This document shows, piece after piece, positions 2 through 14,449 of a stretch of 14,472 nucleotides of DNA (positions are counted from its first letter, which is position 1; every line of letters begins with the position of its first letter). The notes beneath the pieces are model-generated. The model had not been told where the DNA came from. It saw only the letters and a list, made by a program, of their open reading frames with translations, and ran no database searches. This DNA is from an uncultured Deinococcales bacterium (GTDB taxonomy: Bacteria > Deinococcota > Deinococci > Deinococcales > JAAFIG01). The translations under genes were made by a program, and so were the position numbers. Location of the stretch: contig CAXTTL010000123.1 in assembly GCA_964247135.1 (NCBI GenBank), positions 1-14,472 on the forward strand. The letters are read 5' to 3'.

Positions 2-1156
2 AGTTTTGCGCTGGTGGTGCGCATCGTCTTGGGTTTTCTGGGCACGCTCGATACCGACCTTGAGGTTGCCGCCAAGAGTGTGGGCGCGAGTGCTTGGCAG
101 GTGTTTTTTTTCATTGCTCTGCCAATTGCCAAACCCGCGATTTTGGCAGCCTCGGCGCTGGTGTTTCTGTACTGTTTTGCCTCGTTCGGCGTGCCGCTTT
201 TATTGGGCGCGGGACAGTTCAACACGCTCGAGGTGGAGGTCTGGCAGTCGGTCAGCAATCAACTCAGACTCTCTGAAGCCAGCAGCTTGGCGTTGCTGCA
301 ATTGCTGGTGACTTTTGCCGCCAGCCTGTTGTACACCAGGGCGCAATCGGACGCTCGACTTTCGCTCGAGTTTGGTGCAAAACGCCCCATTGCCATAGGA
401 TTGGCTCGAGTGACCTTGGTTGTCTGCGTCGTCTTTACGCTGATTTTGACACTCTCACCGATATTGGCGTTGTTGCGTCAAGCATTGTTTGATTCGGGTG
501 GTTTGACCTTTGGTTTTTTTCTGAGTGCCTTGCGCATCGGCGATGGCTTGAGCGATGTTCCGATTCTCTTGGCGCTCGAGAATGCGGTTTTGTTCGTGAC
601 GCTGACCTTGCTGCTGGCGGTTCCAGTCGGTTTGTTGTACGCGGTTGCGACCCAATTCACAGGCTCGAGAATCCTCGATGCGCTGTCATTGTTGCCGCTC
701 ATGACCAGCGCGACCTTGCTCGGCGTGGCGTTCATTGTGGCGTACCCAAACCTGAGTGCGAACCTTGGCTTGCTGATTGCGGCGTACACGATTGGCGCGT
801 ATCCGTTCATTGTACGCAGTGTCTTACCCGCGCTTCGGGCTTTGCCACCCGAGATTCTCGAGGCGGCACGGGTCAGTGGGGCGACCGAATTTCAAGTGTT
901 TTGGTTTGTGACCTTGCCGCTCCTTCGCCCTGCCTTAAGCACAGGGATTGCCTTTGCCTTTGCCAGCGTGATCGGCGAGTTCAGTGCAACCCTGGTGCTT
1001 TCACGACCCGAATGGGCGACGCTGACCACGGTCATTTATGCCAAACTTGGGCGACCAGGGCAACTGGGGGACGCCAGTGCCGTTGCTGTCATGCTGTTGT
1101 TGCTGACCACTGGCGGGTTTTTATTGCTTGACCGCACCAGGGGACGAATGGGTTAG
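2..1156 (+). CDS. ABC transporter permease, FbpB/ThiP (Fe3+/thiamine) family, 5'-truncated by window edge
   Basis: Frame is open from position 2 (SFALVVRIVLGF...). Highly hydrophobic, with two EAA loops (DLEVAAKSVGAS and EILEAARVSGAT) typical of fused double-permease FbpB/ThiP proteins. Stop TAG at 1154-1156. Substrate cannot be fixed from sequence. Confidence 0.85.
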   Translation, partial: SFALVVRIVLGFLGTLDTDLEVAAKSVGASAWQVFFFIALPIAKPAILAASALVFLYCFASFGVPLLLGAGQFNTLEVEVWQSVSNQLRLSEASSLALLQLLVTFAASLLYTRAQSDARLSLEFGAKRPIAIGLARVTLVVCVVFTLILTLSPILALLRQALFDSGGLTFGFFLSALRIGDGLSDVPILLALENAVLFVTLTLLLAVPVGLLYAVATQFTGSRILDALSLLPLMTSATLLGVAFIVAYPNLSANLGLLIAAYTIGAYPFIVRSVLPALRALPPEILEAARVSGATEFQVFWFVTLPLLRPALSTGIAFAFASVIGEFSATLVLSRPEWATLTTVIYAKLGRPGQLGDASAVAVMLLLLTTGGFLLLDRTRGRMG

Positions 1157-3057
1157 AGCCTGGCTTGATCGGTTCCAGCTCGAGCGGCGTTTGTGCCCAT
1201 TGGCAAAAACAGCTTGAAAGTGGTTCCCATCCCAACTTGGGTTTGGATTTCCAGTTCGCCGCCAAAATGCCCGCGCACGATGTCTCGAATGATGCTTAAA
1301 CCCAGTCCCGTGCCTTTGCCGACTGGTTTGGTGGTAAAAAGCGGTTCAAAAATCTTGGGCAAAATCGCATCGGCAATACCAATACCGTTGTCGGTGACGC
1401 TGAAAACCAATTCGGTTTGCTCGAGTTGAATTCGGGTGCCAAAGCTGACCTCAACCCGCGCATTTTCTTTGCCTTCGCTGGCATGAATGGCGTTAATCAC
1501 CAGGTTTGAAACCACTTGTGTAAAACGCCCTGGTTCGCCGCGCAACAGCGTACCCACCGTTCCAGGGTTTAAACAGACCAGAACCTTGGCGCTCCGCGCT
1601 TGATGCTCGAGCATCGAAAGGGTGTCCTGCGCGACATTGACGGGGTCAAACAATGTGGCTTCGTTGCTCGAGAAGCGGGTTTGGTTGCGCATTTTGCGCA
1701 CGAATTCGCCCAGACGGTCCAGGGTCATGGCGGTGTCTTGCAAACTTTTTTGCAGCTCGGTCGCAATCTCAGAATGGTCTTCATCGGTCACACCAGGGTT
1801 GCCAATGCTCTGGGCGTATTCGTCCGCCAACGAACGCGCTTGGTGCAAGTAATTGAGGCTAGCGGCGAGCGGCGTGTTGACCTCGTGGGCGAGACCGGCG
1901 GTGAGCTGCCCAATGCTGGCAAGTTTTTCACTCGAGATCAAGCGTTCACGGCTGTCCTCGAGTTCGGTGGTGCGTGCCTGAATGCGTTCCTCGAGTTGGT
2001 TGTTCATGGTTAAAAGTTGCGCGTTCAGGCTGCGATTTTCGCGCAAGATCAGGATTTGACGAACCAACACCAAAGCGGTGATGATTGCGGCTGAAACGAC
2101 GCCGACAAGATCGCCTATTTCCGAAGCCAAATGGGATCGGATTAACGGAATGTAAATCAAGACCGCCGCCAAGTACGGGGCATAAGTGCTCAACCAGCTT
2201 AATGATGCCAGGCTTTGGCGGGTCAGCAGGCTCGAGGGTTGAGGGCTAAAACTGAGGTATGCGCCGAGGCAAAAAATGCTCAGACAGAGGATAAAACCGC
2301 TATCGACCAAATTGCCTGGTTGGTAGAATCCCAAACTCAATTGGGCACCAATCGCGGCGTCAAGCAGCACCAAAGACGCTATGCCCAAACTTGCCAGAAT
2401 GATCAAGCGCTGGATTTGAATGGTGCTGCGCATGGTCACAACAATGGCAACACACAGCACCACAATATCGATTGGCGTGCCATTAAAAGGAACCCTGGGC
2501 AAGTTGGTGTTGGTACTGGCAAAAGCCGTTGTGCCTGGGATCAGCAATTGACCAGCGTTTGCCACAATTTTGTCCAGAAAAGAAGTCCAGAACAAAATCC
2601 CAACCGTCAAAACCAGCAAAGACACGTCGAGACTCAAACGCACCACCTCGAGTCGGCTGGTTTTGCGCAGTGGCACTCGAAGCAAACCGATGATCAACAG
2701 AACGCTTGTGCCTGCGTACATCAGATCAATCGGGTTGACTTGGGGGCGATAGCCAAACTCGAAAAAGACCCGCAAAAAATCTGCCAAAACGTGTAGCCCT
2801 GCCCCCCAAACAAAAGGTTGCATGATGAATCGTAAGGTTGGATTTTGAAGGCGGTAGGCTTGAACAAAAAAAAGCATTGCCACGATTTCAACTGGCAGGT
2901 TAAAGATCACCGCTCGAGCTTGCTGCCAAGTTGTTCCGCCGATGTTCAAACCGAGTGCCAAAAAATACCCAAGACCCAGGGCGCACACCAGTACAAACAT
3001 CAATCTCAAAGCCCCAAAACGAGGGTCGGGTCTTGCCTGAGCCACTTCGGGAATCAT
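1153..3057 (-). CDS. Membrane-bound sensor histidine kinase (multi-TM N-terminus, HisKA, intact HATPase_c)
   Basis: About 8-9 hydrophobic segments, coiled coil, H-box LAHEVNTPL, N-box QVVSNLVINAIHA, G1 DNGIGI, F-box IFEPLFTTK, G2 GKGTGLGL. ATG overlaps the upstream gene's TGA (ATGA, 3054-3057). Confidence 0.92.
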   Translation of the reverse strand: MIPEVAQARPDPRFGALRLMFVLVCALGLGYFLALGLNIGGTTWQQARAVIFNLPVEIVAMLFFVQAYRLQNPTLRFIMQPFVWGAGLHVLADFLRVFFEFGYRPQVNPIDLMYAGTSVLLIIGLLRVPLRKTSRLEVVRLSLDVSLLVLTVGILFWTSFLDKIVANAGQLLIPGTTAFASTNTNLPRVPFNGTPIDIVVLCVAIVVTMRSTIQIQRLIILASLGIASLVLLDAAIGAQLSLGFYQPGNLVDSGFILCLSIFCLGAYLSFSPQPSSLLTRQSLASLSWLSTYAPYLAAVLIYIPLIRSHLASEIGDLVGVVSAAIITALVLVRQILILRENRSLNAQLLTMNNQLEERIQARTTELEDSRERLISSEKLASIGQLTAGLAHEVNTPLAASLNYLHQARSLADEYAQSIGNPGVTDEDHSEIATELQKSLQDTAMTLDRLGEFVRKMRNQTRFSSNEATLFDPVNVAQDTLSMLEHQARSAKVLVCLNPGTVGTLLRGEPGRFTQVVSNLVINAIHASEGKENARVEVSFGTRIQLEQTELVFSVTDNGIGIADAILPKIFEPLFTTKPVGKGTGLGLSIIRDIVRGHFGGELEIQTQVGMGTTFKLFLPMGTNAARAGTDQARL

Positions 3058-4946
3058 GTGGTTTCCACCGAATCCACTTTTGGGATCGAAATATCAAAGC
3101 GCGCGCCAAGTCCAAATTGACTGCTGACCCGAATATCACCCGAGAAATGACCTTTGACAATATCGTGCACCACCGATAAGCCGAGACCATCGCCGTGATC
3201 GCTCAGCTTGGAAAACGTTGGTTCAAAAATACCCGTTACAATATCTTGATCCAAGGGCAGACCATTGTGCTCAACGCTTAAATGCGCGGTTTTAAGTGTT
3301 GAACTTAAGGCAATGCGCACCCAAGAAGTTGTCGCCGTTGACTCGACCGAGCAGGCTTGAATCCCAGAAAACACGAGTTCATTTAAAATCTGCCCCAAAC
3401 GCAACGGATCGCCGTGAATCAGTACGGCTTCGTCTGGCAAACTGATACTCAGCTTGACCTGATGCTCAATTGCTTGGTACTCGAGATGGACAAAACCGTC
3501 TTGCAGGGTTTGTCTGGCATCGAAATCAAAACTGTCTTTGCTGGACATTCTGCTTTGTTCGCGGACGCGTCTGATGAACCGACCCAGGCGTTCCAAACTG
3601 CTTTCAATTCTTTGATGGGTTGCCTCGAGTTCGCTGGCGATTTCAAGGTGGTCGTCTTTGGTGACATTGGGGGCAAGGATCGAGTTTTTGTATTCGCGCA
3701 CCAATGTCCTGGCATGGGAAAGGTCGTACAAACTGGCTGCCAGGGGCGTGTTGACCTCGTGAGCCACGCTTGCTGTGACCCTCCCTAAACTGGCAAGTTT
3801 TTCACTTGCCACCAACTGGGCTTGGCTTTCTTGCAGCAGCAAGGTTTTGGCGTTTAACTCTTCAGTGCGCTCTTGAACGCGCTCTTCGAGGTTGCTCGAG
3901 AGTGCTTGCAGGCTTTGGTTGAGGTTGGCATTTTCGGTTAACTCGACGATTTGGCGAATCAAAGCCAAAACAACCACGACGAAGGTGCCGAACAGGACAC
4001 CATTTTCGTTGAGTGCGTGCTCTGATGTCATGAGGGCAGAAATGGCAAAGACCAAAAGGATAGACAGTTGACTGACAATCGGAAACGTTTGCCACTGTGA
4101 CCAGAAGCGCTTTGTTTTGACGCGTTTGACCAAAATCAAATCAGGCTCAACAGGTTGAAGACTTAAAACGGCAGCGATGCAAAAAAGTATTGCACAAAGC
4201 ATATTCAGCAAATCGGATGGGTTTCCCGTTTGATAGGAATTGGTCGCCTCTTGAATGTTGAACAAAACATCGTACAAACCCAGACCAGCCAATCCCAGAG
4301 CCAGACAGGTAAATTGGGCTTGAGTTAAACGTCCACGTCCGTTAAACATCAATAAACTCAAAACCGTCAATTGTAAAACATCCATGATTGGATAGACCAG
4401 GCTTAAACCCAGTGCCAAATACTGCTGACCGTACTCGAGCACGGTATCAGCCAGGTAGACACGCCAGGCGACGACGATCAGCGTCATCATGACGATGGCA
4501 ACCTCGAGCGCAAATTTTGTGCCTTGGAGTCGGGTTTTGATTCGCTCACGCGGAATAAACAAAAATGCGCTAACAACACAAATCGGTTGCAGGACATAAA
4601 AAATGTCGGCAACCGACGGAAAGGGGTCAATTTTTAAGACAAGCTCGAGGTACGCCCAAAGGCAATCGGCGAGCGCCAATGAAAGCAGCGCCATAGCCAA
4701 CCAAAACCACATTTTTTTCATGGAATCGCGGTGTTGTTTTGACACCAGATACATGATCCAAGCGGCAATAAAACTTGGTGGGATATTGAACAAATCGCCG
4801 CGCAGGGTTTCAAACGTTTGTCCACCAATTTGAAACAACAAAATTATTGCCTCTAAAATGCCAAAAAAGAACAAGACACCCAACCACACCAGCAATTGTT
4901 TTTGAGGCGCTCGAGGATGGTTCGGGATTGTGGTTGTGCTGCTCAA
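3054..4946 (-). CDS. Membrane-bound histidine kinase paralog with degenerate ATP-binding domain (putative pseudokinase)
   Basis: Same architecture as the neighbour; H-box VAHEVNTPL is intact, but N-box reads QILNELVFSGIQA and G1 reads EHNGLPL. ORF is open to TTG at 5009. TTG at 4946 is preferred (AAGG 8 nt upstream, N-terminus length matches the paralog), but the start is uncertain. Confidence 0.85.
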   Translation of the reverse strand: MSSTTTIPNHPRAPQKQLLVWLGVLFFFGILEAIILLFQIGGQTFETLRGDLFNIPPSFIAAWIMYLVSKQHRDSMKKMWFWLAMALLSLALADCLWAYLELVLKIDPFPSVADIFYVLQPICVVSAFLFIPRERIKTRLQGTKFALEVAIVMMTLIVVAWRVYLADTVLEYGQQYLALGLSLVYPIMDVLQLTVLSLLMFNGRGRLTQAQFTCLALGLAGLGLYDVLFNIQEATNSYQTGNPSDLLNMLCAILFCIAAVLSLQPVEPDLILVKRVKTKRFWSQWQTFPIVSQLSILLVFAISALMTSEHALNENGVLFGTFVVVVLALIRQIVELTENANLNQSLQALSSNLEERVQERTEELNAKTLLLQESQAQLVASEKLASLGRVTASVAHEVNTPLAASLYDLSHARTLVREYKNSILAPNVTKDDHLEIASELEATHQRIESSLERLGRFIRRVREQSRMSSKDSFDFDARQTLQDGFVHLEYQAIEHQVKLSISLPDEAVLIHGDPLRLGQILNELVFSGIQACSVESTATTSWVRIALSSTLKTAHLSVEHNGLPLDQDIVTGIFEPTFSKLSDHGDGLGLSVVHDIVKGHFSGDIRVSSQFGLGARFDISIPKVDSVETT

Positions 4947-5012
4947 AAGAAAACCTTTGAAATCTTGGATTTGTGATGGCTGAAGTTTTAAAGTGAAGTC
5001 TTTGGTCAAACG

Positions 5013-5045
5013 ATTTTACGTGCCCGCAAGCCTTTTAAAAGTCCA
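5013..5045 (-). promoter_or_regulatory. Putative promoter element upstream of the kinase pair (TGGAC-N4-AAAAG-N12-GTAAAAT)
   Basis: The minus strand has a -10-like TAAAAT at 5013-5018, AAAAG at 5032-5036 and TGGAC at 5041-5045. The same blocks with the same spacing recur at 7816-7848. Confidence 0.5.
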
Positions 5046-5151
5046 AACTTGGCAAAGCGGGCGTGCCCATCAGACCCGAGCCAGAAACACTCGAGCCGCC
5101 AACGATGATTGAGTCAATGGTTGAGTTCGGCAGGGTTTATTTGAGCGCGGG

Positions 5152-6648
5152 TTATTTCAGCAAAGTCTCGAGTTCAATCGTTGCGCCCATGACAGCGCGA
5201 TTATTCCCTTGGTTTTTGGCTTGGTACATGGCGTTATCGGCGTTTTCGATCATGGCGTTGCGGACAAGCTCGAGGTCTTGGTTGCCCAGGTTGCCAGCAT
5301 CGCTTTGACCCGTTTTGCCAGCATCGCTTTGACCCGTTTTGCCAGCATCGCTTTGACCCGTTTTGAGGGTGCACAGACCAATGCTGACGCTGATGGTTTG
5401 TTTTGAATTTTTGTCGCTGTGCCCAACACTGACGGCATTGATGGCTTGACACAAACGTTCGGCAATGACCATGGCGCCGTTTTGGTCGGTCAGTGGCAAA
5501 ACCAGACTAAATTCGTCGCCGCCGTAACGTCCAGCGATGTCGGTCGAACGCAGGGATTCTCGGATGACCCGCCCGACCTTCATCAAAAGATGATCGCCAG
5601 AGAGGTGACCTAGATTGTTGTTAATTTCCTTAAAACCGTCCAGATCAAGCATCAATAAACTGGTGTTGTGCCCATGCCTGGCGGCAAGTTTGAGCGTTTC
5701 ACCAAAGCGATCCATCCAATGAAGCCGTGACATCAAACGGGTTAAACCATCGACGGTTGCCAAATCGTAGAGCCTTACGTTTTCAATCGCGATAGCCGCC
5801 TGCGCCGCGAACAACTCGAGCAGTTCAAAGTCAGTTTCAGGCTCGAGTTGCTGTTCGATAAAGACCACACCGACAATATGGTCTTTGAAGCCAAGCGGTA
5901 CAGCCAAGCTTTGATCGCGTTGGGTGACGCCAGAATCGAGCGCAAATTTGACCAGATCGCGCTCAATCACAGACAAACCTGACCAAGTTTGACGCTCAAA
6001 ACGTCCAGTGCCCACCCGAAGCTCGAGTTGCTCGTTGTTGATGGTGGCAACAAAACCATCGTTGGTCTCCAATTGCTTTTGGGAACCGTCTGAAATCGCA
6101 ATAAACGCCCCAGACAAACCCAGCAAGCCCTGTACTTGCAAGAGCACGCCGCGCATCAAATCCTCGAGCGGTTGAACTTTATGCAGCTCCGGCGTGACCC
6201 GCAAAATATAACGCAGACCGTCCCGAGAGGTGCGTAAAGCCCGAGCGTGCCTGTAGGCTTTGAGGGCGGAATCGACCCAGACCAGCAGTTTTTCTGGACC
6301 TTCGGATTTGTCGTGATAGCCTTGAATCTCGAGATCGCGTAACATTTGCCTGGCTGGACGTTCGGAAGAATAACCAGTTTGCAAGACGATTTGCAGATTG
6401 CGGTCAAACTTGCGAACCTCGCGCACAACCTCTTCGCCGTTCATGTCTGGCATAAAATAATCCAAAAGCATCAAATGAATTTCGTGCTCATGGCTTAAAC
6501 GCAGCGCCTCGATGCCTCCAGAGGCGGTCAGCACGGAATGCCCCTCGAGTTGTAACAGTTGAGCCAACGTCACCAGGATGGTGTTGTCATCATCGACCAC
6601 CAAGATGGTGTGACCTGTTTGCGAGTTTTGAGATCGAAGCCGCGCCAC
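5152..6648 (-). CDS. Response-regulator diguanylate cyclase (REC + DUF3369/GAF-like + GGDEF)
   Basis: REC: ILVVDD...LLDYFMPD...LQTG...HDK. Middle region RDGLRYIL...RGVLLQV...FAAQAAIAIEN resembles DUF3369/GAF. DGLT, LDLDGFK and RSTDIAGRYGGDEF (intact A-site at about 5509-5523 plus RxxD I-site). GTG at 6648 has AGAGGAG 5 nt upstream and aligns with the start of the adjacent HD-GYP protein, so it is preferred over 6747. Confidence 0.92.
   Translation of the reverse strand: MARLRSQNSQTGHTILVVDDDNTILVTLAQLLQLEGHSVLTASGGIEALRLSHEHEIHLMLLDYFMPDMNGEEVVREVRKFDRNLQIVLQTGYSSERPARQMLRDLEIQGYHDKSEGPEKLLVWVDSALKAYRHARALRTSRDGLRYILRVTPELHKVQPLEDLMRGVLLQVQGLLGLSGAFIAISDGSQKQLETNDGFVATINNEQLELRVGTGRFERQTWSGLSVIERDLVKFALDSGVTQRDQSLAVPLGFKDHIVGVVFIEQQLEPETDFELLELFAAQAAIAIENVRLYDLATVDGLTRLMSRLHWMDRFGETLKLAARHGHNTSLLMLDLDGFKEINNNLGHLSGDHLLMKVGRVIRESLRSTDIAGRYGGDEFSLVLPLTDQNGAMVIAERLCQAINAVSVGHSDKNSKQTISVSIGLCTLKTGQSDAGKTGQSDAGKTGQSDAGNLGNQDLELVRNAMIENADNAMYQAKNQGNNRAVMGATIELETLLK
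5291..5365. repeat. Perfect in-frame 24-bp tandem repeat x3 inside the GGDEF domain (encodes KTGQSDAG x3)
   Basis: TTGCCAGCATCGCTTTGACCCGTT at 5291, 5315 and 5339, plus partial TTG at 5363-5365; no spacers. Confidence 0.95.
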
Positions 6649-6804
6649 ACCAACTCCTCTAAAACCGTAACTCTTGAAAAATCCCGACTTTTCAAAACCC
6701 AGCATCGCAACAATTGCCAAGTTCAATGTTGGTTCACTGAAACCCAAAAAACCTAAAAGGATGACTGACCTGGATCAATTATCACACGAATGACACGCCA
6801 GATG

Positions 6805-7806
6805 CTACTTGCCGACCAATTCCAAAGGCTTTTCGCTCGAATTTGACTCCAGGGTTTCAATAAACGCATCGACCACACTTGGGTCAAAATGCCTTCCCGA
6901 ATCCATGCGAAGCTGCGCCAAAGCCTCCTCGTGCGTCCAAGCCCGCTTGTAAGGTCGAATCGACACCAAGGCATCGTAAACGTCACAAATGGCAAAAACC
7001 CGAGCCTCGAGCGGGATGTCTTCGCCCTTTAGACCCTCGGGGTAACCCGTACCGTCGTAGCGTTCGTGGTGATAAAGAATCACATTGAGCGCCCCTTGCG
7101 CCAAACCAGGAATCTGTGACGCCAGATGAAAACCACGTTCGACATGGGTTTTCATGATGCTCCACTCCTCAGGATTGAGCTTGCCTGGTTTTAACAAAAT
7201 GCCGTCAGAAACCCCCAGTTTACCCAAGTCGTGCAGGTACGCGCCTTGGCGCAACGCCTCGAGTTGCAAATGGTTCAAACCAAACGCCTCACCGAGTGCC
7301 GTGGCGTAGCGAACAACATGCTGGGTGTGCCCTGCGGTTTCCAAATCGCGCATCTCGAGCGCCAAACCGAGCGCCAGAAAGCTGCCCTCCAAGGTTTTTT
7401 GGGTATGCGCTTGACGGTAGGATTTCAGTGCCGCATCGACCCAGAGCATCAGCTTTTCGGCACCCTCAGATTTATCGTGATAGCCCTGAATCTCGAGTTC
7501 GCGCAGCATTTCACGGGCGGGAATCAGACTTTGACCGGTTTGCAAAATCACCTGGGTGTCGCTGTTAAATTCACGCAATTTTTTGACCGTTTCGCCGCCC
7601 GTTAAACCAGGCATGTTGAAATCGAGCACCATCACATGAACCGCACTGTGTTGGCAAACCTCGAGCGCCGAGCGACCATTGTCGGCAATCAACACCACAT
7701 GACCTTCACGTTCAAACAAATAACGTAAACTCTCGAGCACCAGTGGATTGTCATCGACGACCAGAATGGTATGACCTGAAGAGGAGTGTGTGGAAAGTCT
7801 CGGCAC
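6805..7806 (-). CDS. Response-regulator HD-GYP c-di-GMP phosphodiesterase (RpfG-like, REC + HD-GYP)
   Basis: REC: ILVVDD...VLDFNMPG...LQTG...HDK. HD-GYP motifs RDLETAGH, LHDLGK, KPGKL, HHERYDGTGYP, DVYDAL, RPYK, HFDP. GTG start. Confidence 0.93.
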   Translation of the reverse strand: MPRLSTHSSSGHTILVVDDNPLVLESLRYLFEREGHVVLIADNGRSALEVCQHSAVHVMVLDFNMPGLTGGETVKKLREFNSDTQVILQTGQSLIPAREMLRELEIQGYHDKSEGAEKLMLWVDAALKSYRQAHTQKTLEGSFLALGLALEMRDLETAGHTQHVVRYATALGEAFGLNHLQLEALRQGAYLHDLGKLGVSDGILLKPGKLNPEEWSIMKTHVERGFHLASQIPGLAQGALNVILYHHERYDGTGYPEGLKGEDIPLEARVFAICDVYDALVSIRPYKRAWTHEEALAQLRMDSGRHFDPSVVDAFIETLESNSSEKPLELVGK

Positions 7807-7815
7807 AATGAGGAA

Positions 7816-7848
7816 ATTTTACACGGCTCGATTGCTTTTCGGCGTCCA
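7816..7848 (-). promoter_or_regulatory. Putative promoter element upstream of the HD-GYP gene (TGGAC-N4-AAAAG-N12-GTAAAAT)
   Basis: The -10-like TAAAAT ends 9 nt before the GTG start with no clear Shine-Dalgarno (near-leaderless). Second copy of the motif at 5013-5045. Confidence 0.5.
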
Positions 7849-7891
7849 TTTCTCACACAGCTCAAACTCGAGTCTTCCCAAGATTCAAATC

Positions 7892-7933
7892 ATTACCGTG
7901 AGGGCAATCCGATGAATTTGCCCTCACGGTGAT
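7892..7933 (-). terminator. Stem-loop downstream of rimO, probable terminator or mRNA stabiliser
   Basis: 13-bp perfect inverted repeat ACCGTGAGGGCAA (7895-7907) / TTGCCCTCACGGT (7918-7930), 10-nt loop, about 30 nt past the rimO stop. The U-tract is weak. Confidence 0.6.
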
Positions 7934-7959
7934 TCTGCGACTCGAGATTGTTTGTCAAC

Positions 7960-9381
7960 TCAATGCGAATGAATTGAACTGTTTATCAGCATCACATTCG
8001 GTTTCCACTCGAGCAAACCCGTCGCCTGGGCGTAAAGGTCGTACTCGTCGGCGTCCTCGACCATCACTTTGATGATGTCGCCAATTTTGATCTGACCCGC
8101 AAACTCGCCAGCCGCAATGTAGACGCTGCCGTCGATCCCTGGCGCATCACCTTTGCTGCGTCCAATCAATTTTGAGCCAGCAATGGTATCGTCCTCGTCG
8201 TCGTTGTATTCGTCAATAATCACTTCAATCTCGAGTCCAATTTTGGCTTGGTTTTTTTGAAGACTGATCTCTTGTTGCAACGCCATCAAACGCTCGAGCC
8301 GTTCCTGTTTGATCTCTTCTGGCACGTGATCTTTGAGCATATTGGAATCTGCGCCCTCAACCTCGCTGTAGGTGAACGCGCCAACGCGGTCGAGTCGGGC
8401 TTCGGTCAAAAAGTCGAGCAATATTTGGAAATCGGCTTCGGTTTCGCCCGGGAAACCGACAATGAACGTGCTGCGCAAAACGATTTCTGGGCAAATTTCG
8501 CGCCAGCGTTTAATCGTCTCGAGCTGCTTGCCCGCGCCAGGGCGCCGCATGGCACGCAAGATGCTGGGGCTGGCATGTTGCAACGGCACGTCCAAATACG
8601 GCAAGATTTTGCCCGCCGCCATCAGCTTCACGACGTTCTCGACGTGCGGATATGGGTAAACGTAATGCAGTCGCACCCAGGCGCCCATCTCGCCAAGTTT
8701 GGCGGTCAAATCCAGCAGATGCGCCGCGACTTGCTGCCCTTGAAATTCCGATTCGCGGTGACGAATGTCCACGCCATACGCGCTAGAGTCTTGCGCGATG
8801 ACCAGCAATTCTTTGGTGCCGCTGGCGACCAAACGGTAGGCTTCGTACAACAAGTCCCCAGCATCTCGAGATTCTTGCAAACCGCGCAGTTTGGGAATAA
8901 TGCAAAAGCTGCACGTGTGGTTGCAACCCTCGGCAATCTTCAGGTACGAAAAATGCTTGGGCGTTAACTTCACGCCCGTGCTCGAGAATGGGATCAAACT
9001 GGTGAACGGATTCTCGTCCGGTGGTATCAACCCGTGCAGTGCCGTCATAACGCCGCCGACATCGCCAGGTCCGGTTACGCTCGAGACGCTCGGGTGGCGC
9101 TGCATGATGGTCTCAGGGCGCTCGCCGAGGCAACCCGTGACAATCACCTTGCCGGTGTGCTCCAGCGCCTCACCGATGCTCGAGAGGCTCTCCTCGATGG
9201 CGGGTGTGATAAAACCGCAGGTGTTGACGATCACGACCTCGGCATCCTCGTAACTGGGCGCGATCTCGTAACCCTCGGCACGAATTTGCGTCAATATGCG
9301 TTCGGAATCGACCAGGGCTTTGGGGCAACCCAAAGAGACAAAACCAACTTTTCGGGTTTGGACAATATTTACAGCACTCAC
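7960..9381 (-). CDS. rimO: Ribosomal protein S12 methylthiotransferase RimO
   Basis: UPF0004 domain [20 protein letters not shown]...NTCGFI...TGCLG; radical [30 protein letters not shown]-terminal TRAM (DAPGIDG...YDL). GTG at 9381 has GGAGG 5 nt upstream. Confidence 0.96.
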
Positions 9382-9453
9382 AACAACCTCCAAAAGCCAG
9401 TCATCATACTCGAGTCACCAGGACTTGAATAGTGACGCCAGATTTCGGAATCT

Positions 9454-10557
9454 TTAGGGCAGCGTGATCGTGGCGGCTTCGGCAGAACCGATGGCGGCTT
9501 TGGTCACACCATTGATTGTCGAACTGATCTGATCGGGTTGCCCAGCCCGTACCGTAATCGGACCCGTATAGGCTTGGCTCGAGCCTTGCTTGGGAATACC
9601 TTCATAAAGCACTTTGCCCGCTTTGTCCTTGATGCGCACCCAGCTTGTGCCTTTAAAGGTTAAATTGATCGTGCCTGGTTTGGCTGCCGTGGCTGTTACG
9701 GGCGGGAGAAGTTTTTGCAGTGAAACCGACAACTTGTGATTGCTTAAAAACGACATGGTTTTGACGTAAGGCTGATAGCCTTTCAGTTCGACCCGCAACT
9801 CTCGAGCGGTACTCGAGGTGACTGGCGTGTTGGTGATCGGGGTTACACCCATGTTGTTACGATCCACCAAGACTGTTGCGCCTTTGGGGGTGCTTTGCAA
9901 TGAAAGCATGACGGTTTGGGTGCCAAGCGTTGTACCAGGATTTTGATTCACAATCACACCGTTCGAGTTTGCATTTGAAACCGCTCCGCGCGGCGTGCCG
10001 CGCAGTGCCGTCCACGCCACCCAAGCGATGGCGCCGAGCACCACCAAACCTGCCAGCACAATTGGAATCAAAGGAAGGCTATTGCTCGGTGCACGCGATG
10101 TACTCATGGTGATTGGACGGTTTGAACCCAGCGCCGAGGTGCCATTGCTGGCGGCAACACTTTTGTTGACCCCAGACGCGGCAAGCCCAGAAACCGGAAT
10201 TGGGCTGAGCTTAGAGGGCGTGTTGATGCGGGTGGCACGTTGCACACTGGGGGCTGGCGCGGGTGCCGCGCCCGAAACGCGGTCGTAGACCTGGACAAAC
10301 GGGGCGGCGTCCAAACCCACCAACTTGGCATAACTTTGAATGTAGCTGCGGGTAAAAATGCCCTCCGGCAATTGATGAAATTCGCCCGCCTCGAGCAAAG
10401 TCAATAAGCTGGTGCGGAGTTTGAGTTTATCGGCGATCATCTCGAGCGACAAGCCTTTGGCTTCCCTGGCTTCACGCAGGGTCGAACCAAAATTGGTTTG
10501 GTCAATTGTTAAACGCCCGGTAAGGCTGCTGGCGGTACTTTTGGTTTCTTCACTCAT
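9454..10557 (-). CDS. rodZ: RodZ-like protein (HTH + TM + PEGA-like + DUF4115-like)
   Basis: N-terminal FGSTLREAREAKGLSLE...LEAGEFHQLPEGIFTRSYIQSYAKLVGLD (RodZ HTH), low-complexity linker, single TM, C-terminal SWVRIKDKAGKVLYEG...VRAG (DUF4115). Adjacent to rimO, a common arrangement. ATG at 10557 has GGAG 6 nt upstream. Confidence 0.8.
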   Translation of the reverse strand: MSEETKSTASSLTGRLTIDQTNFGSTLREAREAKGLSLEMIADKLKLRTSLLTLLEAGEFHQLPEGIFTRSYIQSYAKLVGLDAAPFVQVYDRVSGAAPAPAPSVQRATRINTPSKLSPIPVSGLAASGVNKSVAASNGTSALGSNRPITMSTSRAPSNSLPLIPIVLAGLVVLGAIAWVAWTALRGTPRGAVSNANSNGVIVNQNPGTTLGTQTVMLSLQSTPKGATVLVDRNNMGVTPITNTPVTSSTARELRVELKGYQPYVKTMSFLSNHKLSVSLQKLLPPVTATAAKPGTINLTFKGTSWVRIKDKAGKVLYEGIPKQGSSQAYTGPITVRAGQPDQISSTINGVTKAAIGSAEAATITLP

Positions 10558-10759
10558 CGGGTGCTCCGGTAATTCTTGTGGTTGTTTGACGCGGCTCAAA
10601 AAACTCGAGTGCATTCCAGTGTACCGCGCCTTGGGTGAGGAACACCAAATTGATCCGAGAATTAGAAAATACAGCGCTTTTTTGCCGAACGCACATGAAA
10701 AAAGCCAAATTGGCATTAAGATGAGGCTCGAGTGATGAAGACCATGATCGGCTTGAGGG

Positions 10760-10808
10760 AAACTGAAGTCAGGTCATCTTAAAAAACTGAAGTCAGGTCA
10801 TCTTAAAA
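10760..10808. repeat. Perfect 24-bp tandem duplication in the divergent intergenic region
   Basis: AAACTGAAGTCAGGTCATCTTAAA at 10760-10783 and 10784-10807, directly upstream of the RBS-like AAGGGGTGAG of the 10820 gene. Confidence 0.93.
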
Positions 10809-10819
10809 GGGGTGAGTTT

Positions 10820-12241
10820 TTGAAACAAATTTTCAGAGCGTTTGCGACGTTGATCGTTGCGGGGGTTGGTCTTGCCAGCGCCCAAGATGTGCGTTCGCTC
10901 GGCATGGGCGGGGTGTTGTTGCCCGGACCTGGATTGGCGGCGTTTAACCCAGCCTACGCAACCTATCCCGCCAATCAATGGGGGCGCGGTGGGGGGTTTG
11001 CCCTGCCGGTGGGATTGATCAATTTTTTTATTCGCTCTCAGATGAATATTTTAAACTTTGCCACCAACCGCGCATCTTACGTCAACGACCCTCAAAACAA
11101 CCCGTTTGACCTGCTGCCAATTTTTGATCAAGCCACCAACCTCAACAGCTTTATCCTCAACCCGCCCGCCAGCCCAAAAGAACTGGTGATCGACATCAGC
11201 GCCCAAAACGGCGTGCGATTTTTTGATGGCGAGGGCAACCAACTGCAATTCTCGAGTGGCGCGGGCGTGGCGATAGCGGGCAGCTCGAGCAGCCGTCCGT
11301 TGGGCGTCAACCCACTCTTTCGCCTGCCGATTGACATTGGACCCGTGCAAGTTGGTATTGGTATTTTTGCGAATGTTAATTTCCCCAGTCTGGCACTCAA
11401 CCAAGAATTCCTGAACAAACTCGCCACAAACACGCTCGAGCCAGGTAAAACCTATACTTTTGCCACGGTTTCGCTTCAAGAATCCGCCGGAGTGGCACTC
11501 GATTTGGCGTTCGCCACCAATTTTTCGCTGCCAACCACGACCTTGTACGTCGGCGCTCGAGGCACAGGTTTTTACGGACTGGGTTATGTTTCAGGGGCGG
11601 TCAACGCAAAAGTGACCACCAAACCGGACGGCAGCCCAGACACCAGCACGCTCGGCAAATACGACGGCGAAGTCTTCATCTCGAGTCCGTTTTATCATCC
11701 TGGCGACAGCGGTTTTGGCGCCGATCTCGACCTTGGGGTCGCCGCCGATTTTAGCGGCGCCCAACTCGGATCACCCGAACTCGAGCGTCTGAGCGTTGGG
11801 GCGGGGGTGTTGGGCGGTTTGACCTTCAGTTCTTGGACTGGTCAGACGTTTAAGGTTTCCAACACCGATTCGACCCCATTTGCGGCGGGCAAAGGCGTTG
11901 CGACAACAGTTGACAGTGGTCTTACCACCGATCCGCTTTTTACCATCAACGGTGCCGGATTGTTTAACGTCGGCGTTCCAGGTTTGAAGGTTTTGGCGGC
12001 GGCGGATTTGCAATTTGGACGCAGCGCCTTCTCGATTCACCTCGGCGCCGAAGCGCAATTTGGCGTGCTGGTCGGACGGGCAGGCATCGGGTACAACAAT
12101 GGTTTGACCTTTGGTTTGGGCGGCGGTGTGGATTTCGGCAGAGGGCTTGGACTCGACTTTGCCCTGACCAGCCACACGGCAATCTTTACCAACGGTTACA
12201 CGGCGTTCGGCATTGCCCTCGCAGTCAAGTTGGGGTTTTAA
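10820..12241 (+). CDS. Exported protein, probable outer-membrane beta-barrel (FadL/TraF/PorV-like N-terminal motif)
   Basis: Signal peptide MKQIFRAFATLIVAGVGLASA-Q; DVRSLGMGG...AFNPA N-terminal motif; Gly/aromatic-rich alternating strands; C-terminal FGIALAVKLGF ending in Phe (beta-signal-like). TTG start. Confidence 0.7.
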   Translation: MKQIFRAFATLIVAGVGLASAQDVRSLGMGGVLLPGPGLAAFNPAYATYPANQWGRGGGFALPVGLINFFIRSQMNILNFATNRASYVNDPQNNPFDLLPIFDQATNLNSFILNPPASPKELVIDISAQNGVRFFDGEGNQLQFSSGAGVAIAGSSSSRPLGVNPLFRLPIDIGPVQVGIGIFANVNFPSLALNQEFLNKLATNTLEPGKTYTFATVSLQESAGVALDLAFATNFSLPTTTLYVGARGTGFYGLGYVSGAVNAKVTTKPDGSPDTSTLGKYDGEVFISSPFYHPGDSGFGADLDLGVAADFSGAQLGSPELERLSVGAGVLGGLTFSSWTGQTFKVSNTDSTPFAAGKGVATTVDSGLTTDPLFTINGAGLFNVGVPGLKVLAAADLQFGRSAFSIHLGAEAQFGVLVGRAGIGYNNGLTFGLGGGVDFGRGLGLDFALTSHTAIFTNGYTAFGIALAVKLGF

Positions 12242-12242
12242 G

Positions 12243-12857
12243 ATGAAAAATTATAGCTCTCGGGTTTTACTGGGTTTGGTCGCGCTCGCGCTCTCAGGTT
12301 GCGCCAATTACACCCTGATTACCCTCAAAGTCGATGTTGCCTCCTTGGTTGGCGAGGCAGCCTTGAAGACCACCCTGCAATTTAGCAGCCCAACAATTGT
12401 GGTGAACGAAACCGTGCCCAACAAACCCGAAGGTCAGTTGATTGACAATTTCCCGAAATTGGATGTGCTCAACAGCGCCAAACTCGATATTTTGGTGTTG
12501 ACCGGTGACGGTTCGGGCAATGGCGCCAAAATTTCGGGCAGCGTCCGTGTTTACGTCGCGCCAACCACTGAGACCAATATTTACCAGGACTCCAAGTATT
12601 TGATCAGCAACACCACCGCCGCCACCGCCACCTCGAGCATCCAAATCAATTTTGAACTCGCACCGGCAGGCGCAAACCCAACGCCAGAACAACAAATTCG
12701 GGCAGACGCTTTAAAAGCCATTCAATCGGGTAAATTTCGGGTCGGCGTCAAAATTCAGGGCAACTTCGAGAGCGCCCAAACCAAGCTCGAGATTGCTTTA
12801 AAAACCTTTAAAATTAACATCAGCGGTTATCCGATTAAACTTGTGCCAGCCCAGTAA
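12243..12857 (+). CDS. Lipoprotein of unknown function
   Basis: ATG 1 nt after the upstream TAA. MKNYSSRVLLGLVALALSG-C is a type II signal with lipobox LSGC; mature part is beta-rich. Confidence 0.8.
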   Translation: MKNYSSRVLLGLVALALSGCANYTLITLKVDVASLVGEAALKTTLQFSSPTIVVNETVPNKPEGQLIDNFPKLDVLNSAKLDILVLTGDGSGNGAKISGSVRVYVAPTTETNIYQDSKYLISNTTAATATSSIQINFELAPAGANPTPEQQIRADALKAIQSGKFRVGVKIQGNFESAQTKLEIALKTFKINISGYPIKLVPAQ

Positions 12858-12923
12858 TGTCTTGTTTTGGTTCATCAGTAATCCAGCCCAGAATTTAAAC
12901 TCGAGAAAACAGGAGAATCCTTC

Positions 12924-13235
12924 ATGATGAAAACGGCACTGTTTATTCGACATCAAGCGCAACCCAATAAACGGGATGAAGTTCAACGAATCTGGGAGAA
13001 GCATGTCAAACCTCGAGTTCAGGAAAATGCTGCTCACGAGGCGTATTTTTATTGTTTTGATGACAATGATGCGGATGGTATTTGTGTATTTCAGCTTTAT
13101 ACCGATCAACAATCGGCACAGCAGTTTACGACAGGCGATTGGTATGACCTATACTTGAACGAAGTGATGCATGTGGTCAAAGCACCCCCACAAATCTCGA
13201 CCACCACGCTCGTCTGGGGTAAAGGATTTTCATAA
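12924..13235 (+). CDS. ABM (antibiotic biosynthesis monooxygenase / putative quinol monooxygenase) family protein
   Basis: 103 aa with the dimeric alpha-beta barrel pattern IRHQAQPNKRDEV...YFYCFD...VFQLYTD...WY; AGGAG at 12911-12915. Confidence 0.75.
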   Translation: MMKTALFIRHQAQPNKRDEVQRIWEKHVKPRVQENAAHEAYFYCFDDNDADGICVFQLYTDQQSAQQFTTGDWYDLYLNEVMHVVKAPPQISTTTLVWGKGFS

Positions 13236-13442
13236 CGCATAAACGCAGCATGTCAGCAACACCAATGATCCCAATCAAAACAGTCATGTCAATTGATAAT
13301 TAAGTTTTGATAAAGTGTTTTCTAAGATTTATGAACAAACCTTGACGGTATTTCGTCATCTCGAGTCTTAATTTCTGTCAAACTACAAAGGGTTCAATCT
13401 GTGGGTTTATTCGACATCCCCAGTTTTCTCAGGAGTTTAACC

Positions 13443-13901
13443 ATGAAACTAAGCCTTACTCGAGCATTGACGATGGTTGCATTGACCATCACAGGACTGA
13501 TTTTCAGTGCTGGACTTGCCAAAAACACCTATCGTCTGGCAGCGATTGCGCAGTACAAACTCTCACCAGACACCGACGATGGCACTCGCTTGACGCAGTG
13601 TACCTACTGCCATGTCAACAGCAGCGGCAACAAACCCTGGAATCCGTTCGGCATTAACTTGCAAAGCACCTTCAGAAACGAAACCGACACCAGCCTATCG
13701 AATACGGTACGCATTAAAGATGCCCTTTACAAAGTCCTGGTGAAAAAACTCGATTCCGACAACGATGGTTATTACGACGCGCTCGAGGTATTTGCCAAAA
13801 CCTTACCTGGCAATGACGCCTCAAAACCCACCATTGAATTGGCAAAACTCGAGGCTCAATTTAAAGACGCTGGCGGTTTTGCGCAGTACAAAGCGCCGTA
13901 A
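13443..13901 (+). CDS. Secreted monoheme c-type cytochrome-like protein with DxDxDG Ca-binding-like motif
   Basis: AGGAG at 13431-13435 before ATG 13443; signal peptide ending SAGLA; CTYCH at 13599-13613; NPFG; DSDNDGY...E...T.PG at about 13752-13810. Confidence 0.75.
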   Translation: MKLSLTRALTMVALTITGLIFSAGLAKNTYRLAAIAQYKLSPDTDDGTRLTQCTYCHVNSSGNKPWNPFGINLQSTFRNETDTSLSNTVRIKDALYKVLVKKLDSDNDGYYDALEVFAKTLPGNDASKPTIELAKLEAQFKDAGGFAQYKAP

Positions 13902-13922
13902 AACGAAACTTGATTGCAACTC

Positions 13923-13957
13923 AAGGCTCGAGATTGATGCTCGAGCCTTATTTTTTT
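13923..13957 (+). terminator. Rho-independent terminator of the cytochrome c-like gene
   Basis: AAGGCTCGAG (13923-13932) / CTCGAGCCTT (13940-13949) stem, 7-nt loop, followed by ATTTTTTT. Confidence 0.85.
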
Positions 13958-13971
13958 GCTTAGGGCATCAA

Positions 13972-14008
13972 CAAAATCACCTCGAGCACCATGCTCGAGG
14001 TGATTTTG
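13972..14008 (-). terminator. Rho-independent (possibly bidirectional) terminator of the SodC/CHRD-like gene
   Basis: 17-bp perfect inverted repeat CAAAATCACCTCGAGCA / TGCTCGAGGTGATTTTG, 3-nt loop, 15 nt past the TAA; reads ...GTGATTTTGTT on the minus strand. Confidence 0.8.
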
Positions 14009-14023
14009 GGTTTCAGTCTAATG

Positions 14024-14449
14024 TTAGCGCACGTTGCCGCAGGCAATTCCGCCGCCCACGCCAGCGTCGGAGGCTTTCTGGTGAATGTTGATGTACGCGG
14101 CGGCAGGAATTTTGGCGGTTTCAACCATTTTCTCGATGCTGCCATTGCCGCTGGCGTCGGCGGTCACATCGGGCAAACCGATGACCACAGGACCTTGGTT
14201 GGCGCAAGAACCAACGTGAATGTGCATGGCGTGTTTGCTGTTTGCTTCCATGCCTGAAAGCTTGACGACCACTTTGGCGGTGCCGTCGGTCATCGTGACC
14301 ACGCTGGCAGTGCCAGTGACAGTGCTGGGTGCAGCGTTTGCCAGAGCACCCGTGCTCGAGATTTTAACGTCGTAGCTGGGTCCAGTGTTGGCTGGGGCAC
14401 ATGAGGCGAAGGCGAGCGCACCGAAAGCTGTTAATAGGGCGTATTTCAT
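14024..14449 (-). CDS. Cu/Zn superoxide dismutase-like / CHRD-like lipoprotein
   Basis: AGGAGG at 14455-14460; lipobox-like FASC; HAMHIHVGSC, GPVVIGL, YINIH and C-terminal IACGNV. Lacks the SodC Zn loop, so no sodC symbol is given. Confidence 0.75.
   Translation of the reverse strand: MKYALLTAFGALAFASCAPANTGPSYDVKISSTGALANAAPSTVTGTASVVTMTDGTAKVVVKLSGMEANSKHAMHIHVGSCANQGPVVIGLPDVTADASGNGSIEKMVETAKIPAAAYINIHQKASDAGVGGGIACGNVR

Follow-up and report, generated by a model that had tools for sequence, protein, structure and literature searches.

CTCGAG, a HIP1-like highly iterated palindrome in a family of the Deinococcales

The hexamer CTCGAG is dispersed over the whole of the 14,472-nt stretch of DNA analysed here (the window), which is contig C123 of the draft genome of an uncultured Deinococcales bacterium (G000). 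It is almost certain that CTCGAG is a highly iterated palindrome (HIP) of the HIP1 kind, i.e. a signal at the DNA level that fills the genome to saturation, stays in place between species and continues to arise. With no less confidence, the word can be said to be common to the whole GTDB family of G000 (f1; f2-f5 denote other families of the same order), and weaker or extended forms such as GCTCGAGC to occur in many related genera. As a member of the HIP class in a new phylum, CTCGAG is of shorter length and higher density than HIP1, with no conserved cognate methyltransferase found among the candidates profiled, and the force that acts on this word slows its loss, speeds its gain, saturates the synonymous opportunities evenly and spills over into amino-acid change.

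In the window, CTCGAG occurs 75 times between positions 227 and 14360, or once per 193 nt, in agreement with the about 75 that had been counted by hand in an earlier reading of the bare sequence (the original prediction). Dinucleotide-preserving shuffles of the window gave a mean of 2.14 copies and a maximum of 7, and none of the 200 shuffles reached 75. The enrichment is stronger than the approximately 20-fold excess over about four expected copies that had been proposed. By our own gene calls, 63 sites are in coding sequences (CDS; 39, 8 and 16 in frames 0, 1 and 2). Each of the 11 genes has at least one, as had been claimed, and the examples named for the three frames read as described (Table 1). 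The 12 intergenic copies were also counted correctly, but their distribution had to be amended: they lie within the 1,180 nt of seven gaps, six of which are occupied, and not in about 1.25 kb with seven of eight gaps occupied. One of these 12, at position 13012, falls inside a probable small open reading frame (ORF; 12924-13235). Restriction or methylation genes are not among the window genes, in agreement with the view that the window holds no causal gene.

The signal is genome-wide, as had been suspected. The G000 draft (5.09 Mb in 386 contigs, 52.65% GC, 84% complete, 1.8% contamination) contains 33,925 copies, corresponding to one per 150 bp, ~6,660 per Mb or 6.7 per kb, with an observed-to-expected ratio (O/E) of 24.8 by base composition and 35 by a dinucleotide model. 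CTCGAG is the commonest hexamer of the genome, all 386 contigs carry it at 2.6-11.3 sites per kb, and only one of 2,358 two-kb windows is free of it. The hexamer is the unit, with variable flanks as originally described: G at -1 and C at +1 are found in only 38-39% of cases, the flanks are near-random beyond ±1, and the most frequent 10-mer context accounts for just 478 of 33,909 sites (1.4%). CTCGA is followed by G in 87.6% of cases, and 62% of the TCGA in G000 are inside CTCGAG, with the remaining TCGA near the composition expectation. A maximal-order (fourth-order) Markov control for 4-5-mer frequencies, which the original prediction had named among its refuting tests, gives an O/E of 1.24, but nothing can be learnt from this value, as the pentamers hardly occur outside the hexamer. 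A depletion of single-mismatch variants, which had been suggested as a test, was not seen (O/E 0.08-1.74, with transition neighbours at 1.2-1.7), and such counts neither support nor refute a drive, because the outflow from 34,000 sites feeds the neighbour words. By position, the one-off words number 9,573 at positions 1/6, 8,267 at 2/5 and 4,572 at 3/4. Pairs of CTCGAG less than about 25 nt apart are scarce (235-490 per 3-nt bin versus a plateau of ~700), and no dominant long-range period was found in the spacing, only the 3-nt coding period, although short contigs test long periods poorly. Pairs at 6-nt spacing do not occur at all in G000, because such a spacing would create GAGCTC.

For an analysis at the codon level, 3,944 genes of G000 were called by a home-made ORF and codon-score method, which covers 79% of the genome and misses genes that are cut at contig ends or shorter than 100 codons. 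These CDS contain 26,704 sites (16,761 in frame 0, 3,849 in frame 1 and 6,094 in frame 2), compared with 3,730 expected from a synonymous shuffle within each gene, which keeps the protein and the codon usage of that gene. The resulting O/E is 7.2 (5.7, 14.8 and 11.5 by frame), which upholds the earlier statement that CTCGAG is not just a Leu-Glu codon pair, and a permutation of whole codons gives an even lower expectation of 1,557 sites. Leu-Glu is written CTCGAG in 16,761 of 21,589 cases (77.6%), whereas ~5% would be expected from context-free codon usage, CTC being 15.4% of the Leu codons and GAG 32.6% of the Glu codons outside the motif. Of the places that the protein permits in frames 1 and 2, 42% and 49% hold the word. 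In 1,982 intergenic gaps of 20-400 nt (258 kb, 46.4% GC), there are 2,316 copies with an O/E of 43, and the density in these gaps is higher than in CDS (8.96 versus 6.62 per kb).

The sites are kept between species, as a comparison of G000 with a relative of the same genus (G005; 239 ortholog pairs, 81,092 aligned codons, 86.3% nucleotide identity) made clear. In frame 0, 823 of 975 sites are conserved (84%), in frame 1 135 of 206 (66%) and in frame 2 273 of 361 (76%), while only 46% of all hexamers in the same frames are kept; the conservation across orthologs that the original prediction had proposed to look for is present. Where the amino acid is conserved, the individual codons are retained more often in the motif than elsewhere: CTC to 92.0% versus 55.5%, GAG to 95.8% versus 74.5%, CGA to 81.8% versus 57.3% and TCG to 91.5% versus 71.3%. 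At the 1,081 Leu-Glu positions conserved between both genomes, CTCGAG is used in both in 823 cases, only in G000 in 77, only in G005 in 51 and in neither in 130. Aligned DNA outside gene calls behaves similarly, with 193 of 253 sites kept (76%), compared with 45.6% of all hexamers and 76 of 199 other palindromic hexamers.

Turnover was followed in the window and two further 20-kb segments (54 kb together), using positions where at least three of five same-genus relatives aligned and assigning gains and losses by parsimony. Here, 103 sites are common to all genomes and 98 to G000 and some relatives, whereas 16 are private gains of G000, 12 were lost only in G000 and 26 are private to one relative. 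Of the 115 sites common to all aligned relatives, G000 has lost 12 (10.4%), compared with 23.3% expected for a hexamer at the lineage-specific rate of equally conserved positions (4.32% per base). Several gains took 3-4 substitutions, for example from TTCCAA in four relatives or from TAGAAG-like words in five, and ancestral TTCGAG became CTCGAG in 2 of 6 cases, with a background T>C rate of 2.8%. Gains are about as frequent as losses, and the picture, drawn from small counts, is one of turnover at equilibrium under a directional force and not of a decaying relic.

CTCGAG pushes the protein sequences towards Leu-Glu. This is the most over-represented dipeptide of the G000 proteome with an O/E of 2.37, an excess of ~12,500 dipeptides over the prediction from amino-acid frequencies, while the reverse dipeptide Glu-Leu is at 1.01; Ser-Ser, which is favoured by frame 2, reaches 1.63. 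A direct comparison is possible with G020, a member of family f3 in the same order, which has only 4 CTCGAG in 400 kb at 66.5% GC (O/E 0.0). One branch of the order thus strongly avoids the word that saturates another. In 167 ortholog pairs of G000 and G020 (51,654 aligned dipeptide positions, 52.7% amino-acid identity), there are 874 Leu-Glu in G000 and 303 in G020 (2.9×; O/E 2.32 versus 0.91), and 262 versus 107 Ser-Ser. At the Leu-Glu positions of G000, the residues in G020 are most often Leu-Glu itself (160), followed by Leu-Asp (64), Leu-Ala (62), Leu-Arg (31) and Val-Glu (28). The codon-level saturation is even across protein conservation classes (0.76-0.84), and the Leu-Glu excess is 1.79 in the most conserved proteins versus ~2.4 elsewhere.

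How far does the word reach beyond G000? Loci of relatives were found with the MiaB-like protein of the window, and 80 were kept. The nine closest are from organisms labelled 'Deinococcales bacterium' (8) or 'Deinococcota bacterium' (1), which agrees with a non-cyanobacterial host, and they have 4.8-8.1 CTCGAG per kb (O/E 18-31) at 47.7-58.1% GC. Four loci of Sericytochromatia have 0-2 copies in 21 kb, and the other 67 loci have an O/E of 0-3.4. Within f1, the 18 other genomes, which belong to five genera, contain 838-4,448 copies of the octamer GCTCGAGC, and one of them is a single contig of 5.09 Mb. In 8 of 8 sampled f1 genomes, CTCGAG is the top hexamer (O/E 12-32), and its density is similar, 4-8 per kb, across f1 genomes of 46-62% GC. 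In a survey of the order comprising 301 genomes, the octamer was counted against its reversed control, for which absolute densities are the safer measure, because the control word contains GAGCTC, which is avoided by f1. All 19 f1 genomes have at least 310 octamers per Mb. In f2, 22 of 96 genomes, spread over twelve genera, reach 700 copies or more together with a 10-fold or higher ratio to the control, a further five lie at 5-10×, and the other f2 genera are near 1, so that the suspected lineage-wide enrichment holds for the entire family and for many genera of its sister family f2. In f5, genus g13 (26 genomes) has ~3-8× the control and g22 has 6-28×, whereas the octamer is depleted in 32 of 32 genomes of genus g9 (2-56 copies versus 14-210 of the control), a genus that seems to avoid TCGA. 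None of 95 f3 genomes is enriched.

The form of the word varies within the order. G027 (f2) has the octamer G-CTCGAG-C as its unit (133 of 159 sites; octamer O/E 47). In G030 (f5), 300 of 367 CTCGAG are flanked by S on both sides, and Leu-Glu is written CTCGAG in 50% of cases versus 12.8% expected. In the high-GC family f4, nearly all of the excess is in frame 0 (39/0/1, 32/0/2 and 16/0/2) at about twice the codon usage, and the enrichment there is mostly codon bias. As side observations, all 20 TCGA in a 20-kb sample of G022 are inside CTCGAG, and this genome has a methyltransferase of TaqI size. The MiaB-like methylthiotransferase of the window (7960-9393, minus strand) has its nearest matches outside its own family in metagenome-assembled genomes of Sericytochromatia and Blackallbacteria (67-68% identity), followed by Gammaproteobacteria at ~60%, with no other Deinococcales among the 80 loci kept, a pattern that may be due to gene transfer or to hit selection.

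Which known systems can be compared with CTCGAG? CTCGAG resembles HIP1 (GCGATCGC) in that it is also a short GC-rich palindrome, is found tens of times more often than expected, and likewise occurs in all frames and in non-coding DNA with a conservation beyond that of the codons; conservation in every frame and codons that are kept better inside the motif have served as tests for selection on HIP1 (Xu et al. 2018, PMC5861425). The one-off deviations of both words are biased to the outer positions (Elhai 2015, PMC4390886), and both have lineage variants or extensions, the octamer of G027 being composed of GC+4-mer+GC just as HIP1 is GC+GATC+GC. The differences concern the word and the phylum, the core CGATCG of HIP1 being nearly absent in G000 (O/E 0.03), the length of the unit (hexamer versus octamer) and the density, as HIP1 has 300-2,700 copies per Mb (Elhai 2015). 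Furthermore, CTCGAG clearly inflates one dipeptide, the spacing of HIP1 is quasi-periodic (Xu et al. 2018) while a dominant period was not found for CTCGAG on contigs that are short for such a test, and a conserved cognate methyltransferase, which would be expected wherever a HIP is abundant (Elhai 2015), was not found for CTCGAG among the profiled candidates. HIP1 is also reported to improve transformation, an effect that depends on methylation (PMC13756078). Literature on highly iterated palindromes, overrepresented palindromes and Thermus, Deinococcus or Meiothermus yielded no report of CTCGAG enrichment, although supplements of Elhai (2015), Xu et al. (2018) and Blow et al. (2016) could list relevant genomes or methylomes, and the HIP1 papers (PMC4390886, PMC5861425, PMC13756078) do not mention Thermus or Deinococcus. 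The designation as HIP1-like is well founded, since abundance, frames, non-coding presence, hexamer unit, spread and host each hold under test.

The uptake signal sequences (USS) of Pasteurellaceae and the DNA uptake sequences (DUS) of Neisseriaceae are asymmetric 9-12-mers with about one copy per kb, and their inverted pairs serve as terminator stems. CTCGAG shares with them that it is a genome-wide iterated word, that the encoded peptides are about doubled and that the effect on proteins is smaller where these are well conserved. DNA that was apparently acquired lacks CTCGAG, inverted pairs are found in terminator-like stems, and competence genes are present. In case of the uptake sequences, the encoded tripeptides are approximately doubled, with a preference for poorly conserved positions (Findlay & Redfield 2009, PMC2817400).

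By this analogy, the favoured explanation, at somewhat less than an even chance, is that CTCGAG is the recognition word of a symmetric factor in uptake or recombination and is spread by biased conversion. A symmetric (dimeric) DNA-binding factor with a role in DNA uptake and/or homologous recombination would recognise CTCGAG, DNA or alleles bearing the word would preferentially be taken up, recombined or kept, and this preference would result in a molecular drive to CTCGAG wherever selection on the gene product permits it. Such a drive would act per site and would therefore not be weakened by a rising number of sites, from which it would follow that synonymous opportunities are nearly saturated, that sites are lost more slowly and gained faster, that amino acids are changed as well and that recently acquired DNA has few sites. 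The pattern is more readily explained by such a drive than by selection on 34,000 individual sites. More doubtful is the wider idea that CTCGAG may be a sequence-encoded 'self' tag, belonging to a methyltransferase-independent system that is tied to uptake or recombination, occurs in much of the order and was lost in some branches.

Several points weigh against the uptake/recombination drive. The competence gene comEC is present in 30 of 31 relatives, carriers and non-carriers alike, and as ComEC is equally found where the motif is missing (3 of 3 in f3, 2 of 2 in g9), competence genes do not track the trait and do not separate carriers from non-carriers. Neither a receptor nor a binding protein is among the identified genes, and the link to uptake would be by analogy only. 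Sites conserved in place would equally be expected under direct selection for a function, as Xu et al. argued for HIP1 (PMC5861425), and the G-CTCGAG-C octamer in G027 fits the G+site+C pattern that Elhai associates with methylation-directed repair (PMC4390886). The gains with multiple substitutions could be allele replacements from unsampled relatives, and the counts of gains and losses are small (16 and 12). Finally, a palindromic hexamer at 6.7 copies per kb is unlike USS and DUS in symmetry, length and density, and corresponds in form to the typical site of a type II methyltransferase.

What, then, are the alternatives to a drive by uptake or recombination? It appears somewhat unlikely that the word is maintained by methylation, in that an orphan methyltransferase marks CTCGAG or TCGA and methyl-directed or short-patch repair favours the methylated word. 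For such a mechanism speaks that CTCGAG is palindromic and the site of XhoI/PaeR7I, and that many methyltransferases are found in G000. The repair bias that enriches a methyltransferase site in E. coli, where an excess of CCWGG results from Dcm/Vsr very-short-patch repair, is a conceptual model for a palindrome drive, albeit one whose effect is far smaller than that on CTCGAG. Orphan enzymes for the identical word exist in nature, namely in Nocardia, where the motif clusters at the origin, whereas it saturates the genome in G000 (Blow et al. 2016, PMC4752239). The outer-position bias of the one-off words is another supporting point, as it is for HIP1 (Elhai 2015), but the best support is the octamer of G027, which mirrors the G+CGATCG+C of HIP1 and has a counterpart in the mild preference for G at -1 and C at +1 in G000.

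The search for the enzyme, however, speaks against this mechanism. In G000, the families C5, N4/N6, N6_Mtase, Eco57I, D12, TaqI_C, XhoI and Vsr were searched for; four candidate methyltransferases were profiled across 31 genomes, and two families were searched for in five well-assembled carriers. No conserved methyltransferase that tracks CTCGAG was found among the families and candidates covered, with other families such as MT-A70 and EcoRI-type enzymes not searched and G000 84% complete. None of the four candidates has orthologs throughout f1: they occur in 3 (the C5 enzyme of contig C14), 2 (C36), 6 (the Dam-like enzyme of C320) and 4 (C207) of the 18 other genomes. TaqI-like methyltransferases are present in 6 of 18 f1 genomes and absent from G000 and the complete f1 genome G011; the latter also has no PF01555 enzyme, and G008 and G015 have no C5 match, so that C5 enzymes are not universal in f1. 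No methyltransferase ortholog is common to f1 and G027. The XhoI endonuclease family PF04555 was found in none of 19 f1 genomes, in a search of unproven sensitivity that did give a match in G021, and CTCGAG is not avoided in f1 as an XhoI target might be. Vsr was not found in any of the 19 f1 genomes or of the 22 strongly enriched f2 genomes, while it is present in 15 of 95 non-enriched f3 genomes and 27 of 301 overall, mostly non-carriers; the canonical Dcm/Vsr route is therefore rejected. A methylation-coupled mechanism is as yet unsupported by the genes surveyed, with the caveat that different enzymes could share a target and that target specificity cannot be read from an enzyme's sequence. 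The original prediction had listed methylation-directed repair, DNA uptake, recombination and chromosome organisation without a choice; of all this, only the canonical Dcm/Vsr variant could be eliminated, and no conserved methyltransferase was found among the candidates profiled.

Less probable still is direct selection on each site for a function at the level of the chromosome, such as the binding of a nucleoid or condensation protein, replication or segregation, without any drive. It would account for the conservation in both coding and non-coding DNA, which is the argument of Xu et al. (2018) for HIP1, for the similar density at very different GC contents within f1, and for the scarcity of close pairs, which suggests diminishing returns from neighbouring sites. 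With ~34,000 sites, however, the value of each site would be tiny, and yet the codon choice of ~78% of Leu-Glu is overridden and amino acids are changed; moreover, there is no dominant long-range periodicity, unlike the quasi-periodicity reported for HIP1, and no candidate protein was identified. Uptake/recombination drive, methylation-coupled repair and direct selection are not mutually exclusive.

Codon, dicodon or amino-acid usage, i.e. a preferred CTC-GAG codon pair in abundant Leu-Glu, is extremely improbable as the source of the excess. It could explain that 63% of the CDS sites in G000 are in frame 0, and it largely holds for f4, but for G000 it is refuted by the 15× and 12× excess in frames 1 and 2 over the synonymous shuffle and the 43× excess over composition in intergenic DNA, by the use of what are otherwise minor Leu and Glu codons (15% and 33%) and the absence of a Glu-Leu excess, and by the conservation of non-coding sites. 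A longer repeat family, whether repetitive extragenic palindromes (REP), miniature inverted-repeat transposable elements (MITE) or CRISPR-like repeats, or an artefact of assembly or binning has practically no chance, as the near-random flanks, the 1.4% share of the top context, the in-frame sites inside conserved genes and the recurrence in nine independently deposited relatives and 18 f1 genomes, one of them a single contig, refute it, even though k-mer binning could leave out contigs with few sites and thereby overstate the uniformity of the genome.

Work on HIPs has been confined almost entirely to cyanobacteria, where methylation-directed repair, chromosome organisation and transformation are debated as their function. 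CTCGAG provides an independent case with another phylum, a different word and an unusually strong effect, and the order offers contrasts for phylogenetic profiling, namely strong carriers, an octamer-variant carrier, weak carriers and word-avoiding lineages. For annotation and evolutionary analyses, it is a warning that synonymous sites of such genomes, and some amino-acid replacements, follow a DNA word and not protein function, and k-mer binning will treat native and foreign DNA of these genomes very differently. If the self-tag reading were true, CTCGAG would represent a drive of the uptake-sequence type that has no precedent outside Proteobacteria and none with a palindromic, hexameric word, the drive would have rewritten ~1% of all dipeptide positions of the proteome, and an independent system for the 30-year-old HIP1 puzzle would be at hand.

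Table 1. CTCGAG sites and related features of the window (positions in the 14,472-nt stretch)
Position	Strand	Feature	Basis
227..14360	.	Dispersed array of 75 CTCGAG in 11/11 genes and 6/7 gaps	Site positions, shuffles, frames
227..232	+	Frame-0 example, CTC GAG = Leu-Glu (reads Leu-Glu-Val)	Reading frame
405..410	+	Frame-1 example, GCT CGA GTG = Ala-Arg-Val	Reading frame
664..669	+	Frame-2 example, GGC TCG AGA = Gly-Ser-Arg	Reading frame
5090..5095	.	Intergenic copy in gap 5010-5151	Site positions
7867..7946	.	Two intergenic copies (7867, 7941) in gap 7807-7959	Site positions
9409, 10727, 12900, 13360	.	Other intergenic copies	Site positions
8865..8870	.	Private gain; CGCGGG in three relatives	Parsimony
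9812..9817	.	Private gain, ~3 substitutions; TTTGAC, TTTGAT, CTTGAC in relatives	Parsimony
2913, 3624, 3895, 4910	.	Other private gains	Parsimony
6836..6841	.	Loss only in G000; CTCGAA here, CTCGAG in three relatives	Parsimony
2859, 8332, 8783, 10148	.	Other losses only in G000	Parsimony
13923..13957	+	Terminator-like hairpin (13923-13949) after gene 13401-13901, followed by T-run	Read from sequence
13923..13949	+	Predicted 10-bp stem AAGGCTCGAG/CTCGAGCCTT on CTCGAG copies 13927 and 13940, 7-nt loop	Read from sequence
13973..14007	.	Second predicted hairpin, beside convergent gene 14024-14449 (-); 14-bp stem on CTCGAG 13981 and 13994, 7-nt loop, A/T runs inside the stem ends	Read from sequence

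In both hairpins of the window, which are in the gap between convergent genes, the two copies of CTCGAG are 13 nt apart. In the non-coding DNA of G000, there are 356 pairs with a spacing of 3-12 nt, of which 113 extend the stem and 85 adjoin a T or A run, and judged from these arrangements the paired copies probably have a secondary use as stems of terminator-like hairpins. In the tRNA genes of G000, 10 CTCGAG are found in 5.1 kb, compared with 34 at genome density (0.3×), and 8 of 66 predicted tRNA genes have the word (e.g. C14:11589-11740, C157:3282-3938); this count is still several-fold above the ~1.5 estimated from the base composition of tRNA.

Motif-poor DNA is rare, as only 11 stretches of G000, 34.5 kb together, have four or fewer CTCGAG per 3 kb, although G000 is a binned metagenome genome and k-mer binning may have dropped motif-poor islands. 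Four motif-poor stretches were inspected, namely the two longest gaps without a site and two from the list of 11. None of the four matched an Rfam family, so that rRNA genes were rejected as their content. Their gene products are TPR, AAA and STAND-type NTPases, as well as an O-antigen ligase, a patatin-like protein and family-less proteins, and the two low-density stretches have a GC content of 34-41%, a predicted gene content that is typical of the flexible genome.

Restriction targets are normally avoided, and palindrome avoidance is extreme in G000, which carries many restriction-modification genes: GAGCTC has 0 copies, GGCC 380 sites (O/E 0.02), GGGCCC one site, and CGTACG, GGATCC, CCGCGG, CAGCTG and GCATGC have an O/E of 0.01 or less. 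Of the 64 palindromic hexamers, the majority have an O/E below 0.2, and hardly any GRGCYC words occur. Purged words are matched by two complete type II systems (G000:C178:2930-4752 and G000:C189:4077-5632), one with a C5 methyltransferase beside an Eco29kI-family nuclease (CCGCGG type) and the other with an N4/N6 methyltransferase beside an MvaI/BcnI-family nuclease. G000 also has two MmeI-like enzymes (C21, C192) and, on the motif-poor contig C112, a 1,499-aa Eco57I/N6_Mtase protein. The sole XhoI-family endonuclease found among the 31 relatives is in G021 (C1:75199-75756, L149), a genome in which CTCGAG has the highest O/E of all hexamers (7.5) with nearly all sites as frame-0 Leu-Glu, and a relative of the N4/N6 methyltransferase of C36 in G019 (C4:1796117-1797046, 54% identity) has one in-frame TGA.

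Among viral contigs with tight CTCGAG triplets (at least 80 loci), the 25 densest of those listed are high-GC and GGCC-rich and none is f1-like, which has no bearing on the phages of this lineage. In two freshwater metagenome runs, only 5-7% of the sampled words were present, as contigs only. In the window, the ORFs 10820-12241, 12213-12857, 12924-13235 and 13401-13901 are without Pfam family, and positions 13599-13881 have short matches of 70-80% on numerous other contigs from the same-genus relatives, a pattern suggestive of a repeated domain or a small gene family.

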